Positions 6,140-58,483 of a stretch of DNA of 64,000 bases are shown one piece after another. This stretch comes from Octopus sinensis. Lineage: Eukaryota. The translations under genes were made by a program, and so were the position numbers. Position 1 is the stretch's first letter, and each line of letters starts with the position of its first letter. The stretch spans positions 36,840,464-36,904,463 of the forward strand of contig NC_043011.1 of assembly GCF_006345805.1 (NCBI RefSeq). Reading direction: 5' to 3'. Under the pieces are notes generated by a model. It had not been told where the DNA came from. It saw only the letters and a list, made by a program, of their open reading frames with translations, and made no database searches.

Positions 6140-6610
6140 TTAATCGTAGACCGTTTTCGTCTATTACCGAGACTTACTTAGGTAATTTTTCGTCCGCAGT
6201 CTCTTCAGTAGAACTATGCACACGTCTAATTTTACAAGTACAACTAGTGTATAGTTCTACAAATTATATTGAATTGGAACGATCGTACTGAAGAGTCTAC
6301 GGACGAAAAATTACGTAAGTATTTATCGGTAATAGACGAAATCGGACTACGATTAATTCTGTATTTTTATATGTATTCAGCTGTCTTACCCGCTTATGTT
6401 CTGGTGTTTGCTGAATTTCTCTAGAGAACATTCTTTTCTTTGTAGTTAGATCGTATGTGAACTTCTTCTAGCATATTGGATGTCCCTAAATATAGGCATG
6501 TATTACAATTTTTTTCTGAATTTTCAGATTTCTCTATATGTTAGGCTACCGCTTTTATATTGATATTAATTAAATTAATATTAAATTTATCACCCTCGTT
6601 ATTTAAATTA
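6140..6610 (+). mobile_element. Penelope pLTR/retrozyme-like non-coding unit with a 71-bp inverted 5' duplication
   Basis: 6140-6210 is inverted at 6286-6356 and contains a hammerhead motif. 6398-6445 is similar in reverse to 22599-22640. The unit ends at an (AT)n tract. Confidence 0.7.
6282..6353 (+). ncRNA. Minimal type-I hammerhead ribozyme motif
   Basis: Stem I ATCGTA/TACGAT, core CTGAAGA, stem II GTCTA/TAGAC, GAA, then ATCGGAC. The inverted copy reads AACGGTC, so the implied consensus is ACCGGT-C. Confidence 0.75.
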
Positions 6611-10152: not shown

Positions 10153-10433
10153 GAATAATAATAGTAATAATAATAATAAAAATAATAATAATAACAACAA
10201 CAACAACAACAACATCAACAGCAACAACAACAACAACAACAATAACAATAATAATAATAATAATAATAATAACAATAACAATAACAATAATTATAATAAT
10301 AATAACAACAACAGCAACAACAACAACAACAACAACACACAACAACAACAACAACAACAATAACAATAATAATAATAATAATAATAATAACAATAACAAT
10401 AACAATAATTATAATAATAATAACAACAACAGC

Positions 10434-10469
<36 letters not shown>

Positions 10470-10496
10470 AATAATAATAATAATAATATAATAATG

Positions 10497-10528
<32 letters not shown>

Positions 10529-10619
10529 GATGATGATGATAATGATGATGATGATGATGATGATGACGACGATGATGATGATGATGATGACGACGATGAT
10601 GATGATGATGATGATGATG

Positions 10620-10676
<57 letters not shown>
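10153..10676. repeat. Compound (AAT)n/(AAC)n/(GAT)n microsatellite with an internal duplication of about 118 bp
   Basis: Block at about 10223-10336 is repeated at about 10341-10460. Confidence 0.9.
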
Positions 10677-13197
10677 TGGTCGGCGAACGAACCACCAAAA
10701 AAAAGGAGTATCAGAATAACAAACTCGGCATCTGAACAACTTTGGACCCCCATAACAACTGAAGAGGTCACCCAGGCACTGCAAAGACTAAGCAACTGGA
10801 AGGCACCTGGGCATGACAAGATCCCCAACTTCTGGTTGAAATATCTAACAGGAATGCACAAAAAGCTGGCTGAAAACTTTAACAACGTACTAGCAGAGCC
10901 AGAGATAATGTCTGAATGGCTCACGAAGGGGAAAACCATCTTAATTCCCAAATCAAATGAAACAGAAAAACCAGAAACTACAGACCAATAACCTGCCTCC
11001 CTACTATGTTCAAGGCATTTACTGCAGTGATATCACAAAGGCTGAACAAGCACCTGGACGAAAACAAACTGTTCCCAGAAGAGCAGAAAGGATGCCACAA
11101 AGGCTCATATGGCTGTAAAGATCAACTAATGATTAATAAAGCCATAACTGAAGACAGCCACAGAAAGAAGAAAGGCCTCAGTATGGCCTGGATTGACTAC
11201 AAAAAGGCGTTTGATAGCATCCCCCACACATGGATCCTCGAAACACTAGCCATTAACAAAGTAGCACCAACAATCATAAAATTCATAGAGCACTCTATGA
11301 ATAAATGGCAAACAGTCCTACACCTCCAAACAAAAGAGGGACTCATGAAAACCAAAGACATCCCCATTAGAAGAGGAATATTCCAGGGAGACACGCTCTC
11401 TCCACTCCTTTTCTGCTTGGCACTGTCACCTCTATCTGATATGCTAAATAGAACTGGATGCGGATATAAATGTTACGGCAAAACGATCAGCCACTTTTTA
11501 TATATGGATGACCTAAAACTATAGGCTGCAAATAACAAACAGCTGGAAACACTATTAAAGACAGTTCATGGATTTACCAAAGAAATAGATATGAAATTTG
11601 GATTAGAAAAATGCGCCAAAGTAACCCTGAAAAGAGGAAAACTAGTTAAGAGTAACAACATCACACTAGATAAAACCAATGAAATAAAAGAATTAGACCA
11701 AAGCCAAACTTACAAATACTTAGGAATCCATGAACTAGATAAGACACAACACACACAAATGAAAGAGAAAATAAAAAAAAGAATATTATAGACGAGTTAG
11801 ATCAATACTAAACACAGAGCTCAATGCTAAAAACAAGATAATAGGTATCAACACTTTAGCTGTCCCAGTTATAAGTTACAGCTACAATATCCTTAACTGG
11901 ACACGAAATGAACTGACCAAAATAGATAGGAAAACGAGAAAAATAATGACAGGATCTAGGATGCATCACCCAAAATCTGACATAGAAAGACTATATATAC
12001 AACGTATAGAAGGTGGTAGAGGTCTTATACAGCTGGAAAACTACTATAAAATAACCACCATAGGACTGCAAAAATATCTACTTCAGAAGGAAGGAAAACT
12101 GATCCAGATAGCGGCAAAACACGAGCAAAACAAAAAATGTTCTCAGTATTTAAGGAAGCTGACAAATACAAACAAGAAATCATACCACCTAATAAACATG
12201 AAGAAGAAGAAGAAGAAGAAGATGAAGAAACAACAAAAGCTATAAAACAAATGAAATCCAAACTAAAAATAGAACAGCAACGAACCATGATAAAACGATG
12301 GCAAGAAAAGCCCCTTCATGGTAAATACTGGACTAAACTAAACGCAAAAGAAATAGACAAAGAAAAATCCCAGCAATGGTTGAGAAGCTCAGGACTCAAA
12401 GCAGAAACAGAGGGATTTTTAATTGCAGCACAAGACCAAAGCCTCCCCACCAGAAATTACCAAAAACATGTAATGAAAAAAATATTACAAGTAACTGCAG
12501 AATATGTGGAGATGGACAAGAAACAATAAATCATATTATCTCTAGCTGCCCAGTCTTGGCTAAGAAGGAATATATTCACAGATATGACAGAGTTGGAACC
12601 TACATACATTGGAAGCTATGCCAACATTATGGAATAACAACAGAAAAAAGATGGTATAGGCACACACCAGAAAAGGTCACAGAAAACGAGAAAGCAACCA
12701 TACTCTGGGATATGCCGATACACACAGATAGAGAAATTAAGGCCAACAGACCAGATATAGTTGTCAGAGATCATGAAGAAAAAAAATGCTTTCTAATTGA
12801 TGTATCAATACCGGCTGATGACAACGTGTCTCAAAAAGAAATGGAGAAACTCTCAAAATACAAAGACCTGGAAATAGAGGTAACTAGAATGTGGAATCTG
12901 AAAACAGAAACAATTCCTATCATAGTAGGTGCATTAGGCATGATAAAAAAATATTCAGACAAATACATAACAAAAACACCAGGACTTACAAACACATATA
13001 ACATACAGAAAATTGCACTACTAGGCCCAGCCCACATCCTACACAGAACACTTTCCATACAATAACCATCAGAGCATCACAACAAATCACAGCACATGCA
13101 CAAGGCACACAGAGCTGTGCTCGGTAGTGAAGTGAAAGCACACTATAAAAATAAAACTACTGAATAATAATAATAATAATAATAATGATAATAATAA
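10675..13197 (+). mobile_element. 5'-truncated Dong/R4-clade (RLE) non-LTR retrotransposon inserted in (AAT)n
   Basis: RT, CCHC and RLE coding region, a 3' UTR of about 100 bp (13066-13162) and an (AAT)n tail. The 5' junction is also in (AAT)n. Confidence 0.95.
10677..13065 (+). pseudogene. Reverse transcriptase / zinc knuckle / restriction-like endonuclease ORF, disrupted
   Basis: Motifs KAPGHDKIPNFWLK, WIDYKKAFDSIPH, RGIFQGDTLSPLLF, YMDDLKL, CRICGDGQETINHIISSC, NRPDIVV..LIDVSIP..EKLSKY. TAG at 11522-11524. Frameshifts near 10980, 11780, 12135 and 12480, mostly in A runs. Confidence 0.95.
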
Positions 13198-13246
13198 CAT
13201 GGAAAAATACCTTAGGAATGTGAACCAGGTTCGAAATTTCCCCAAG

Positions 13247-13290
13247 GCACCTGATCAAGGCTGGAGGGTTTATCAGCCGAAACGTTGTGT
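13247..13290 (+). ncRNA. Minimal hammerhead-like motif (G8 to C)
   Basis: GCAC-CTGATCA-A-GGCTG(GAGGGTTTAT)CAGCC-GAA-ACGT-T-GTGT. Confidence 0.6.
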
Positions 13291-20704: not shown

Positions 20705-21095
20705 AAGAGGGAATTATGCTAGAAGTAGATCCGCTATGGTCTTACCACTGATAAAGGAATATTCGCAAGAAAACGTAGCAAAGCCAGAACGTAAGCGAGC
20801 AAGACAAATGAAAAAAAACATAGTTACATCATAAACTAATTTCACTATTAATACTTACGCAAAATTACTTACGTAATTGTCCGTAGCTCTTCAGTATGAT
20901 CGTCATTGCAAATATAATTTGCACAACTATACACGAGACTTCCGCATGAGATTAAACAAGTATACAGTTCTACCAATTACACTTGGGGTTATCTTTCAAA
21001 AGTCTTCGTTTTGGCGCAATAAAGTACCGGAAATAATTCTGCAGAAAGTTATTTTCTGCAGTGAGTTTTACCGGTTAGAGAACGTAGTTACTTTT
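20705..21095 (-). mobile_element. Hammerhead-bearing pLTR/retrozyme-like unit flanked by (AT)n
   Basis: Homologous to 6260-6400 and 39300-39420 (GTAAGCGAGCA.GACAAATGAAAAA). Hairpin CTGCAGAAA-GTTAT-TTTCTGCAG near 21039-21061. Confidence 0.7.
20828..20900 (-). ncRNA. Minimal type-I hammerhead ribozyme motif
   Basis: ATCATA-CTGAAGA-GCTA...TAGT-GAA-ATTAGT-T-TATGAT. Confidence 0.75.
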
Positions 21096-28702: not shown

Positions 28703-28867
28703 AAATTAAACACCTTTTCTCAATTCAATAATGAAAAATTAAATTATACCATTTAGAAAAATTACATATTATAGAAAGATTAAATATAAGATAAAACATA
28801 TAACAATGATTAAGTAATATGCAAAATAGTAACTAAAACGTATATTATGTATATATATATATATGTA

Positions 28868-29643
28868 TAATAATTAATATACGATAAATTTTTTTCGGAA
28901 AAAAATTTTTTACCAATGGCCAGCATATCAAAAAATGCCTTTAAAGGTTAAATTTATACATAATTTACAAGATAAGGGCAGAAGAAAAATTCCAATGCCA
29001 AGTATGCCGAAATAAAAAATGTCGATAACCATTATAATTTATGCGTCTCGAAAACAAACCGATAGAAATCTCTAAAAATTCGTTATTACCATATTGGTCC
29101 AATTTCGGGGTTAATTCATAAGAAATGTTCCCCTCTTCAGCGGCAAATACGCGAGATATAAATGAAATACTTACTCATACCCATGGAAAAGCAAGCACTA
29201 TCTGCCCTTATCTTGTAAATTATGTATAAATTTTACCTTTAAAGGCATTTTTTGATATGCTGGCCATTGATAAAAAAATCTTTCCCGAAAAAAATTTTAT
29301 CCTATATTAATTATAAATAGATTAGTGTTCACTTCCGGATTCTATCACTCTGTGAAAGTTTCTAGTTCGAATCACACTTTCTCGAGGTGCGCCGAAGATT
29401 TTTCTATATTGGATATATTTGGGGTACTTAAGTCTGCTCAGGACTTAGTGTTTGCTTTTTCCATTGGTATGAGTAAGTATTTCATTTATATCTCGCGTAT
29501 TTGCCGCTGAAGAGGGGAAAATTTCTTATGAATTAACCCCGAAATTGGACCAATACGGTAATAACGAATTTTTTAGAGATTTCTATCGGTTTGTTTTCGA
29601 GACGCATAAATTATAATGGTTATCGACAATTTTTTGTTTCGGC
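28868..29643. mobile_element. Interleaved inverted duplication of a hammerhead-bearing unit
   Basis: 28868-28983 is inverted at 29201-29314, and 29006-29200 is inverted at 29446-29643. Confidence 0.85.
29496..29557 (+). ncRNA. Hammerhead-like motif (mirror copy at 29091-29151 on the minus strand)
   Basis: CTGAAGA-GGGG...CCCC-GAAA is intact. Stem III/cleavage region TTGGAC and proximal stem I are non-canonical, while distal CGTATT/AATACG pairs. Confidence 0.55.
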
Positions 29644-30004
29644 GTGAATTTGCAGATGGAATGTGCTTATGTAATTTGTGTTCAAACAAAGAATTGTAAT
29701 ATCTCTCTCACTCACCCTTCCTCTCTCTCTTTCTGTCTTCATGTACATATCTATGTTCATGTGCATGCAGGCCTGTGTCAATGTACGTATGTATTTGCCT
29801 TCTGCTCTGCACCAAAGAGAGGCCGAATCTCCAGCAAGCTGGTGCCAAATTGTCTGCCTCCAAATACTTGCGCTCGTTTGTCAAGTTGTATGGTTGATCA
29901 AACACACACACATCTCTGAATCACCCTCTTCCTCACACTGTCTCTCTCTCACCCTCTCTCTCTCTCTTTATATATATAGATATTCGTGGTCCTGCGTCAA
30001 TTAG

Positions 30005-35374: not shown

Positions 35375-36354
35375 ATAGAAAATAGTAAAAAGTGAAAAAC
35401 TACAGAAGGCTTAAAGGTTAAAAGATATATATATTTGCGTCAATATGTCTGAAGAATATAAAAAAAATTTTTTTTTTCCTTACAATGACATAGTTTAGAA
35501 GAAAGGCCGGTTTCGCGTTTAGCTTTTCAAATTTCTTACGACATTATGTTGATGTTGAATAGAGTTAACGTTATGTTTATATTTAAAAGAGTTCTAAATA
35601 AGGAGAGGTAATGAGTGATTTCTTCCGGTGTAAGGGAGATAATCGCTTAATTTTTTTTTCCTTTCCCTTGGTGTGAATTTCTCTGTATCAGTATGTTGGC
35701 ATGGTTAAGTCTGGGCTTGTACTTTTCAATGAAGAATGTTTCCTTGTTTAGTCTAATTTGTGTTGATGATCCGATAGCACATTGGTAAAATGGAAAGATT
35801 AAAAATTGTGGTAGTAGTTGCTTTGCGCATTTCTCAATGTGCTCACTAAAAAGTATCATTCTGTATTCTGGGAATGCAATCTGTTGTCGATGCAGTGTGC
35901 ATCTACGTCTGAGTGATAGTCCGTGGATCACGTAGTCTTGGTGGCAGCCCGAGCATTTTATGACATAATTATGTTTTCAGAGGCACAAGTAAAGTTAGAT
36001 TTGATCTTGAATTCTGTCCCTCTTTAAAGAGGAATTCTGATCCTTCTAGCAGGTTTGGAATGTTGCACAGTTCGATCTACCACATTTTTTTACTTTTGAA
36101 TCCGTAATTTCAGAAAACAATTTTGCCTTTGTGAGAATCTTTTTAAGTGATTTAGGTTGTTTGTAGCTTTTAATGATTTGGTGTATGTTTAGAATTTCCT
36201 TTAATTTGGGGTCCTTATGAAGTATTGGTAAATACTGGGTGATGATGGTGAAGGCTTCTTTGTTTCTGGGGTTGTATGTAGATATGTAAGGTAGTATTTT
36301 CGGGGAAGGTGTGTTGTTGTGTTGAACTTTTCTTAAAGTTTCTATGTTGATTTC

Positions 36355-36447: not shown

Positions 36448-36883
36448 ATATCTACATGTATGTCTATAGATATGTATATATATGCCTGCGTTTATATACA
36501 CGTATGTATATGTATATATATGTATATAACTATATCTATATTTATCTATCTATATATGTGTGTGTGTGTGTGTCCGTGTGTGTTTGTGTAGTAATCACAT
36601 TATTGTTAACAACTGAATTATACCTTTGCGCATACAATAATTATGATACAATTTCAAAATCATCAAATAGTTTACTGAACATATTCCGGATATTGGCACC
36701 CTTTTTCAAATCCCACGTGCCTGAAGACGGTAAAGTGACACCACTTTAGTTTTACTTCTAGCTAGATTCACTCGTCTATATAAATGTGGATATGCTGATT
36801 AACTTTTATATGTTCCGATGACGCTTGGTCGGAAATATAAGGGGTAAGTTTTCCTAGCATTTCTAGATTTATTTATCGGAATA

Positions 36884-36940
36884 TTATGTCGATGAAGGAA
36901 ATGAATCTTATGATTCTAATCCAGAAACCTACGTCCATAA
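36884..36940 (+). ncRNA. Minimal type-I hammerhead motif in a non-coding unit (about 36590-37235)
   Basis: TTATG-TCGATGA-A-GGA..(GAATC-TTAT-GATTC)..TCC-A-GAA-ACCTACGT-C-CATAA (GUC triplet). Confidence 0.7.
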
Positions 36941-37243
36941 TTAACCGAAGACTATTTGATTTCATTATTTTCTCCTTTTTTTGCCATATGTGAGTTACAA
37001 ATATTGTTGTCTGTGGCGACATATTTTTGCAGAAAAAGGAAATAGAAGTCCTTTGGCTGCTATTTCTAAAATTTTTCGGTATGTGGTCAAGTAACTTGTT
37101 GCTAAACCCTTATTGTTATATTTATATATAAAAAAATTTTTTGTATAAGATTTTACCGAATATGGTCCTTTTCCATACCGAAATACTACTAGGTGAAATT
37201 TGATGATTTTATCAAATTAATTATCTTTCACACTAAATCTGTA

Positions 37244-39271: not shown

Positions 39272-39814
39272 AAGTAATGAGAGAGAATCCACATGTGGTC
39301 ACTCTAACGCTGGATATAGATCCACGAAGGGAATCCACCACTAAAGAATTGTTCTCAAGAATTAATTCAACGCGCCGAGAATGTAAGCGAGCAGGACAAA
39401 TGAAAAATAACGAAAAAATAGATTAACTCTATACAATTGTATCACCGTTAATAGATTGTGTAATTTTACTTGCATAATCATTTTCAGATCTTCAGTAGAG
39501 TATATAAAAAAATCTAATTTGCTGAGTCGAACGCCAAAATTCACACGAAGCCGAACAAAGGCGAATGGCACAGCCGATTATATCTGCAGTTACGTTCAAA
39601 TATCCTCATTCTCGCGCGCTAAACCCGGATGTAAATACTACCCCAGTAATTTACTGGCGGTTTGAGAACATATTAATTTATAATTAAAATCACAATAGGG
39701 GTGAAAAAATGGAATATCAATTAATAACATCAATTTAAACACCAAGTGGCCTAGCGTATAAAAACTGGGATATAGTAAAAATTATTAATATAAGTAATGA
39801 GAGAGAGTCCACAT
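39272..39814 (-). mobile_element. 520-bp hammerhead unit with 23-bp terminal direct repeat
   Basis: AAGTAATGAGAGAGA(A/G)TCCACAT at 39272-39294 and 39792-39814. Flanked by (AT)n. Confidence 0.78.
39426..39501 (-). ncRNA. Minimal type-I hammerhead motif (A14 to U)
   Basis: ACTCTA-CTGAAGA-TCTG...CGGT-GAT-ACAATTGT-A-TAGAGT. Confidence 0.7.
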
Positions 39815-57273: not shown

Positions 57274-58483
57274 TTGGGTTGGCAACTAAGCTCCCGCCGT
57301 TCTTTAAAATAAATTTTTTTTAAAAGGTTTAATAAAAAATAACAACTAATTAATCAATAATGTATTCACCCTTGTTGTTTACAACTTCTTCTCAACGTTC
57401 AACAAGATTTTCAATACCTCGTTGTTAGAAATCACTCGATTTCGACTCTAAAAATTGATCCAACCAAGCTCTCAATTCTGCATCAGTATTGAACGAAGCT
57501 CCGCGCATAACATTTGAAAGAGATCGTAAGATGTGGAAATCCGTTGGTGCCAAATCAGAAGAGTTCGACGGGAGTAGCAGCACTTCCTAGCCATACGTTT
57601 GAATGGGTTCCTTGGTCATATTGGCGATATGAGGGCGGGCTTTGTTGTGCAGCAGAAGAACTCCATGCTGCCGATTAGGTCTTTTCTCTTAAATAGCCGT
57701 GTTGAGTCGTTCCATCTGTTGAACATAGAGCTCCGCGTTGACCATTTGGTTCCGTTCAAGCAATTCGTAATGGATAATCCATTCCCAGACCCACCATATG
57801 CACAACATCGTTTTATGCAGATGAAGATCTTGTTTCACGCGTAGTGTCTCTTCTTTACCGGGGCTAAGCCATTCATTACGCTGCTTTATATTGACGTACA
57901 GGCACCATTTTCCATCGCCAGTAACCATTCGGTAAATAAATCTTTGCTTGTGTCCATGAGTTGAGCGGGGACGAGCAAGCAAACCAGCGGAGATTGTGGC
58001 TGGTTGATTTTTGTTGTTGTCACTTAAAGCATGCGGAACCGATGCTCCATACTTCTGAAACTTTCCCATCGAGTGAAGATGCATCTCTATAGCAGTGTGC
58101 AAGCATTCCATTTTCTCTGCCATTGCATTTTGGTGCAAAAGTTGCTTTAATCGGTCTTCATCGAATTCGACTGGACGGCCAGAATTAGGTGCATCTTTGA
58201 GGTCGAAATTTCCATTTTTGAACTAGGCATACCAATTACGAGCGGTTCTTTTAGCTATGGCACCCTCTCTCTACACAGTAAAAATGTCGCGAGCAGCTTT
58301 TGTGGCCTTAGAACTTTGATTAAAAGCAAAAAGAAGGTGTCGAAAACGCTCGTTTTTCTTAATTTGATATTCCATTTTAATGATCTGAAAATAAACAAAC
58401 ATGAATAAAAATTAACTAGAAGGAAATAAAACAAAATAGATCCCCCCCCAAAAAAAAAACGCGGCAACTTAGTTGCCACCTAA
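57274..58483 (-). mobile_element. Near full-length mariner element (1.21 kb)
   Basis: TIRs TTGGGTTGGCAACTAAG / CTTAGTTGCCACCTAA with TA flanks. Confidence 0.95.
57350..58375 (-). pseudogene. Mariner transposase, frameshifted
   Basis: MEYQIKKNERFRHL, MVTGDGKWCLY, WLSPGK, KTMLCIWW, DLAPTDFHILRSLSN, NNKGEYIID*. Confidence 0.93.

Follow-up and report, generated by a model that had tools for sequence, protein, structure and literature searches.

How two incomplete pieces of one ribozyme-bearing repeat came to lie head to head in Octopus sinensis DNA, and from what kind of RNA they were copied, are the questions raised by the locus at 28870-29643 of the 64,000-nt stretch analysed here (the window). 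The form of the template (circle or linear) and the origin of inverted copies of Penelope-like elements (PLEs) are questions left by papers of 2014, 2021 and 2024. The window is AT-rich (GC 35%), microsatellite-laden and repeat-rich animal DNA. The locus consists of the following features:

28870-28982, minus strand: A′, the inverted arm's 3′ portion, bordered on its outer side by a (TA)n tract (about 28850-28869)
28983-29005, minus strand: L, a 23-nt linker leading from B to A, confined to the inverted arm
29006-29200, minus strand: B′, the inverted arm's hammerhead-bearing piece, truncated on the 5′ side at the junction
29086-29146, minus strand: type I hammerhead, copy 2, core from 29140; predicted cut between 29092 and 29091
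29200/29201, no strand: head-to-head junction, by inspection with zero extra bases and zero microhomology
29201-29314, plus strand: A, the direct arm's 5′ portion (114 nt), present a second time as A′
29315-29445, plus strand: X, 131 nt, confined to the direct arm
29446-29643, plus strand: B, hammerhead-bearing; it extends 88 nt past the predicted cut to its right end
29501-29561, plus strand: type I hammerhead, copy 1; predicted cut between 29555 and 29556, after AUA

Self-BLAST and global alignment gave the order A (114 nt), X (131 nt), B (198 nt) for the plus arm from 29201, and B′ (195 nt), L (23 nt), A′ (113 nt) for the minus arm from 29200. Both orders had been proposed in a first-pass annotation of the window and were borne out, as was its closure of the pieces into a loop of about 465 nt; the cyclic unit measured 462-466 nt with a GC content of 33%. 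Of the extent it had given, the left end is corrected to 28870 from 28868. In global alignments, A differs from the reverse complement of 28870-28982 in 7 of 114 columns, and B from that of 29006-29200 in 8 of 198. In total the arms differ by 11 substitutions (3.6%) and four one-base indels, in each of which a homopolymer run is longer by one base in the plus arm. The 3′ ends of the arms point outward, their 5′ ends are joined, and A is duplicated. The element is real but ordinary: two pieces of one ribozyme-bearing repeat, head to head. Assuming initially identical arms in an octopus host, and with a divergence-to-time scale taken from PMC13282606, the 1.8% divergence per arm corresponds to about 5 million years since insertion. 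The divergence fits such an age, and equally fits two different source copies.

A type I hammerhead with complete core and helix order was found by descriptor in both B copies (stems 6/4/4 bp). There is one motif per unit, as claimed earlier, and with both B copies carrying it there is one on each strand. Copy 1 comprises helix I (6 bp), the CUGAAGA core (29507-29513), helix II (4 bp with a 19-nt loop), GAAA (29541-29544) and helix III (29544-29554), an 11-nt palindrome with a single central A. A strict descriptor (type I, stems of at least 5/4/3 bp) had no matches in 200 block-shuffled windows, and a loose descriptor had 4 in 20,000 shuffles of the plus arm. In the real window, one more descriptor match was located at 20894, inside a decayed copy of another family. 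Rfam gave no hammerhead match at E ≤ 10 over 28840-29680, so that the call has the descriptor and the folds behind it but no family model. For the whole window, the 150 Rfam matches listed of 196 were microRNA models on microsatellites, all below the gathering score, and the element alone had a single chance snoRNA match (E 3.1). The hammerhead pattern had 0 matches in the GTDB prokaryote collection, as expected, and a sigma-70/terminator scan stayed at chance level and is not relevant here.

Folding suggests how such a ribozyme might act. The minimum-energy cofold of the hammerhead dimer is a double hammerhead (-36.7 vs -26.2 kcal/mol for two monomers), and the best fold of the monomer is inactive, the active one being 1.1 kcal/mol worse. 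The palindromic helix III, of the metazoan form, accordingly predicts cleavage in the dimer only. Two copies on a tandem source transcript would be expected to adopt the double-hammerhead structure, through which a monomer of 465 nt could be set free. In whole-locus folds of both strands, the hammerhead is paired within the long B/B′ duplex. Because there is one hammerhead per strand and read-through RNA is predicted to bury it in this duplex, no monomer can be released from the locus, and the element is now most likely inert.

An ORF had been reported as lacking, and none was found: the longest stop-to-stop frame within the element is 78 aa, and the two frames searched (78 and 69 aa) had no homologue. 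Likewise, tblastn with six PLE proteins detected no RT/GIY-YIG ORF in the element (best E 0.09). A PLE protein profile reached -0.4 bits over the element, equalled by 29 of 300 shuffles, and indicated no PLE remnant. This profile was made from 89 of 156 retrieved proteins, those of 600-900 aa, and covers Neptune-like relatives only, a label based on the CxxxxCxxC linker and the clade description given in PMC8557442. The frame over the hammerhead resembled a PLE N-terminus by eye (E 0.21) and was rejected, its profile score being only -2.3 bits with 221 of 300 shuffles as good. A C-terminal profile match of 4.4 bits (2 of 300 shuffles) crosses the inversion junction and therefore cannot be an ORF relic. 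Neither blastn (word size 7) nor nhmmer (--max) detected other copies of the unit in the 64-kb window, and the unit did not match the window's PLE remnant or its flanks. Two 14-nt motifs of the unit were absent from the portion of a published supplement that was searched. No link to a specific autonomous PLE was found.

One arm runs from B into L-A and the other from A-X into B, an arrangement most simply explained by a template that includes B-L-A-X-B. Such a tandem or terminally redundant template is well supported. A circular or tandem template had been postulated in the first-pass annotation; the tandem or terminally redundant part of this stands, since both adjacencies exist, whereas a circle is not required, because neither arm exceeds one unit and a linear B-L-A-X-B yields the same product. 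The strand switch postulated with it, in its simple form onto the nascent cDNA, fails because L, which the minus arm holds, is absent from the plus arm. A fold-back could be saved only by an antisense template or if the plus arm subsequently lost its distal end. A single locus is of little weight, and what modest value it has concerns mechanism. Since L and X are each missing from one arm, a template of more than unit length is called for and simple fold-back is excluded. The locus points to two-ended target priming.

Each strand, followed from its target end, starts as antisense of the element, which fits two first-strand cDNAs. Priming from both target ends, with the cDNAs joined, fits better than a fold-back strand switch. 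We favour, with slightly better than even confidence, a single inert insertion of a short non-coding repeat that was mobilised in trans by a PLE RT/GIY-YIG endonuclease through two-ended priming. The template would have been an uncleaved linear transcript of more than unit length containing B-L-A-X-B, or two such RNAs, and the enzyme would have cut both strands of an AT-rich target. One target end may have primed at an internal position 88 nt beyond a hammerhead cut on its 3′ side, with B, X and A being copied; the other may have primed where A ends, about 222 nt past a cut site in the 3′ direction, with A, L and B being copied. The two first-strand cDNAs would have been joined bluntly, as in twin priming with internal duplication. 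Mobilisation by a PLE is supported by the window, since it holds a PLE ORF remnant and a second head-to-head hammerhead pair.

The distances from cut to end follow from the coordinates (88 nt for the right end, 222 nt for the left). For an anole PLE, PMC11167929 describes a protein that cleaves and extends both target strands and prefers AT-rich DNA, a mainly unprocessed RNA substrate, and a start 85-92 nt 3′ of the hammerhead cut (+111-118 vs cut +26). For the Hydra clade, 23 of 26 supplementary rows of PMC8557442 give distances from cut to 3′ end of 29-354 nt or, on the other reading of the table positions, 49-374 nt; three rows were dropped for gapped stems, a 5′ motif and an antisense duplicate (one each). 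Both 88 and 222 nt are inside this published range of 29-374 nt. The 88-nt match to the anole element is consistent with a PLE enzyme but not diagnostic, being one value in a wide range. Against the proposed mechanism stand the junction, at which there is none of the microhomology that PMC2912911 describes for twin priming of L1, and the 114-nt duplication, which is far above the L1 median of 22 nt (283 of 1,703 inverted L1 insertions carry an internal duplication according to 10.1101/2024.08.27.596794). The priming sites, about 135 nt apart, also contrast with a PLE tail of 30-40 nt. A right flank that is not (TA)n, and the lack of a match between the unit and any particular autonomous PLE, count against it too.

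A different template with the same two-ended priming is fairly unlikely in our estimation. Here a circular 465-nt RNA (a non-LTR retrozyme circRNA) would have arisen by double-hammerhead cleavage and ligation, and both cDNAs would have run across the ligated cut site. Both arms do cross the predicted cut site intact, a hammerhead that works only as a dimer should leave a monomeric circle uncleaved, and the unit is non-coding with 33% GC. Circles have been proposed as PLE templates (PMC4209133), and a mussel retrozyme of 350-390 nt is described as accumulating as circRNA (PMC7229834). Metazoan retrozyme circles are, however, reported to be highly self-paired (PMC7229834), unlike the circular monomer fold obtained here (z -0.33; 52 of 150 shuffles equally stable). 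Moreover, rolling was unnecessary, neither arm being longer than one unit; uncleaved linear RNA was the main substrate of the sole PLE tested in vitro (PMC11167929), and only one of nine predicted Xenopus retrozyme dimers cleaved in vitro (10.64898/2026.07.22.740005). The more specific idea that the locus is the fossil of an undescribed cephalopod retrozyme, whose 465-nt circle was primed by a dimeric PLE protein from both cut strands (cut+88 and about cut+222), we regard as doubtful. If true, the inverted copies of PLEs would be linked to twin priming, and circles would be shown to serve as templates for PLEs. No description of an octopus retrozyme or of PLE twin priming was found in a search of literature listings that left most subscription papers and bioRxiv supplements outside its scope.

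The pieces could also be two or three separate insertions of one family, side by side, for instance by homing into the family's own repeat; this we consider decidedly unlikely. In the strongest form of this explanation, B-L-A is a linear element with fixed ends, X is an unrelated spacer, and there is no 465-nt cyclic unit. It accommodates arms that are 3.6% apart in substitutions, as well as a B start and an A end that are each present at both copies, and a PLE protein is described as able to cut in its own repeat (PMC11167929). It requires, however, exact abutment at 29200/29201 together with complementary truncations, though no other copy exists in 64 kb. The 3′ end of X also pairs with the start of B, in a hairpin at 29411-29493 (z -3.9, window chosen post hoc), whose strength was equalled by 26 of 3,000 random 41-mers of the window, with boundaries chosen post hoc. 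The domain 29375-29610 had a fold z of -3.0, likewise in a window chosen post hoc, and in a duplex test of the whole of X, 65 of 1,098 GC-matched controls were as good. The unbiased test of X with B favours separate insertions, as the stability gain of X+B was not significant (141 of 500 GC-matched controls). The folding data weakly suggest that X is native to the unit.

Other origins of X and its surroundings were tried and rejected. X scored no better as a decayed copy of B than 1,316 of 2,000 shuffles. A Pol III/tRNA head in X was indicated by a single B-box match (29365-29373, plus strand), of which the window has 18; ARAGORN reported no tRNA, and the T5 run at 29399 comes before the hammerhead. 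An intron was considered because of the splice-donor motif GTAAGT just 5′ of the hammerhead (29473-29478, plus strand), which occurs 32 times in the window and is not significant. At the outer boundaries, the left end lies in the (TA)n tract and the right flank is not (TA)n; the best candidate for a target-site duplication is 4 nt, and none is longer. The right flank at 29644-29673 weakly resembles L, the continuation of the template (among 5,000 window controls, 62 were as good over 30 nt and 297 over 60 nt; eight tests in all). This likeness may be due to chance or to homing into a relative that has since decayed, and it possibly makes the right end less sharp.

An inversion-duplication at the DNA level, in which replication template switching acted on an earlier uninverted B-L-A-X-B insertion, would give the identical final order, and its left breakpoint would fall in the self-complementary (TA)n tract. 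The inner junction is nevertheless without microhomology, the head-to-head layout recurs in an unrelated hammerhead family of the window, and this layout is a PLE insertion product described in PMC8557442; we hold such an origin to be very improbable. An assembly or read fold-back artefact can be dismissed almost entirely, for although short-read assemblies reportedly have difficulty with inverted PLE structures (PMC8557442) and all four indels are an extra homopolymer base in the plus arm, there are 11 substitutions between the arms, and L and X are each private to one arm, which a fold-back read cannot create.

The Penelope/retrozyme context in which the first-pass annotation had placed the locus was right. 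Inversion of a 5′-truncated copy, a hammerhead of this shape and targeting of (TA)n are published PLE features. Hammerhead-bearing PLE debris is common in invertebrate genomes. As usual for PLEs, PMC8557442 describes an inverted 5′-truncated copy adjoining the 5′ end, together with insertion into (TA)n, where target-site duplications go unseen. In its supplement, Penelope-13_HM is entered with an attached inverted copy and hammerheads on both strands, and a 1-nt helix III loop is given for 17 of the 26 rows of the Hydra clade, Hydra-1_oBim among them (counted by eye). Close hammerhead pairs on opposite strands are described for Schistosoma (PMC4209133), non-autonomous PLEs with head-to-tail copies are known (PMC8557442; PMC8969392), and 31 recently active PLE families are reported for Octopus vulgaris (PMC13282606).

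With EN+ PLEs (Hydra, Neptune and Penelope/Poseidon clades) the element shares a type I hammerhead near the 3′ end, a palindromic helix III with a 1-nt centre, an inverted truncated copy at the 5′ end (here at the junction 29200/29201), and (TA)n at one end with no discernible target-site duplication. It differs in having no RT/GIY-YIG ORF or remnant, a unit of only 465 nt and a helix III of 5+1+5 vs 4+1+4; no 30-40 nt tail is definable in it, and no parent was found. Metazoan non-LTR retrozymes, in turn, share with it a non-coding low-GC unit (<50%), one type I hammerhead, a ribozyme that is predicted to depend on dimers and, if our reading of the template is correct, a tandem template. Unlike them, the locus has no head-to-tail array and only one hammerhead per strand, and its circular fold is not unusually stable. 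The unit is slightly larger than the 150-450 bp given in PMC7229834 and within the 51-972 bp of 10.64898/2026.07.22.740005. Both sources propose metazoan non-LTR retrozymes as non-autonomous PLE derivatives, and the latter, a preprint of 2026, traces animal retrozymes back to the terminal repeats of PLEs. The element is not classed as a retrozyme, because there is no head-to-tail array at the locus and no stable circle, nor as an autonomous PLE, because it has no ORF. It behaves like a PLE-mobilised, retrozyme-like repeat.

LINE-1 twin priming similarly produces an inverted 5′ piece and a direct 3′ piece with the overlap copied twice. In contrast to it, the element is without poly(A), target-site duplication and junction microhomology, its duplication is 114 nt vs a median of 22 nt, and another enzyme is presumably involved. 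A description of the element's family was not found in the literature searched; its kind is already known.

Several other relics were noted in the window. A second, unrelated hammerhead family occupies 6140-6475, where a head-to-head pair (6140-6356; cores at 6208 on the minus and 6288 on the plus strand) has arms that are 78.6% identical; its layout is that of 28870-29643, and it is older. Decayed copies of this family lie at 20715-20937 (minus strand) and 39378-39411. The PLE ORF remnant at 35701-36354 (minus strand) is frameshifted and comprises the RT thumb, the CxxxxCxxC linker and part of the GIY-YIG domain (136.9 bits against the PLE profile). Its first part is 96% identical to an unnamed database protein, and a decayed hammerhead-like motif was seen by eye about 150 nt downstream. 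Upstream of this remnant, the non-repetitive stretch 36700-37240 has no match elsewhere in the window and contains, by eye, possible decayed hammerhead-like motifs on the plus strand. A broken non-LTR retrotransposon at 10155-13065 (plus strand) has RVT_1 and zf-RVT matches and (TAA)n-type repeats at its flanks. Right after the 3′ end of this LINE, a decayed hammerhead-like motif of a third type, with one core mismatch, is located at 13246-13290 (plus strand). A mariner-type transposase fragment is present at 57689-58222 (minus strand; Pfam Transposase_1, E 2e-16).
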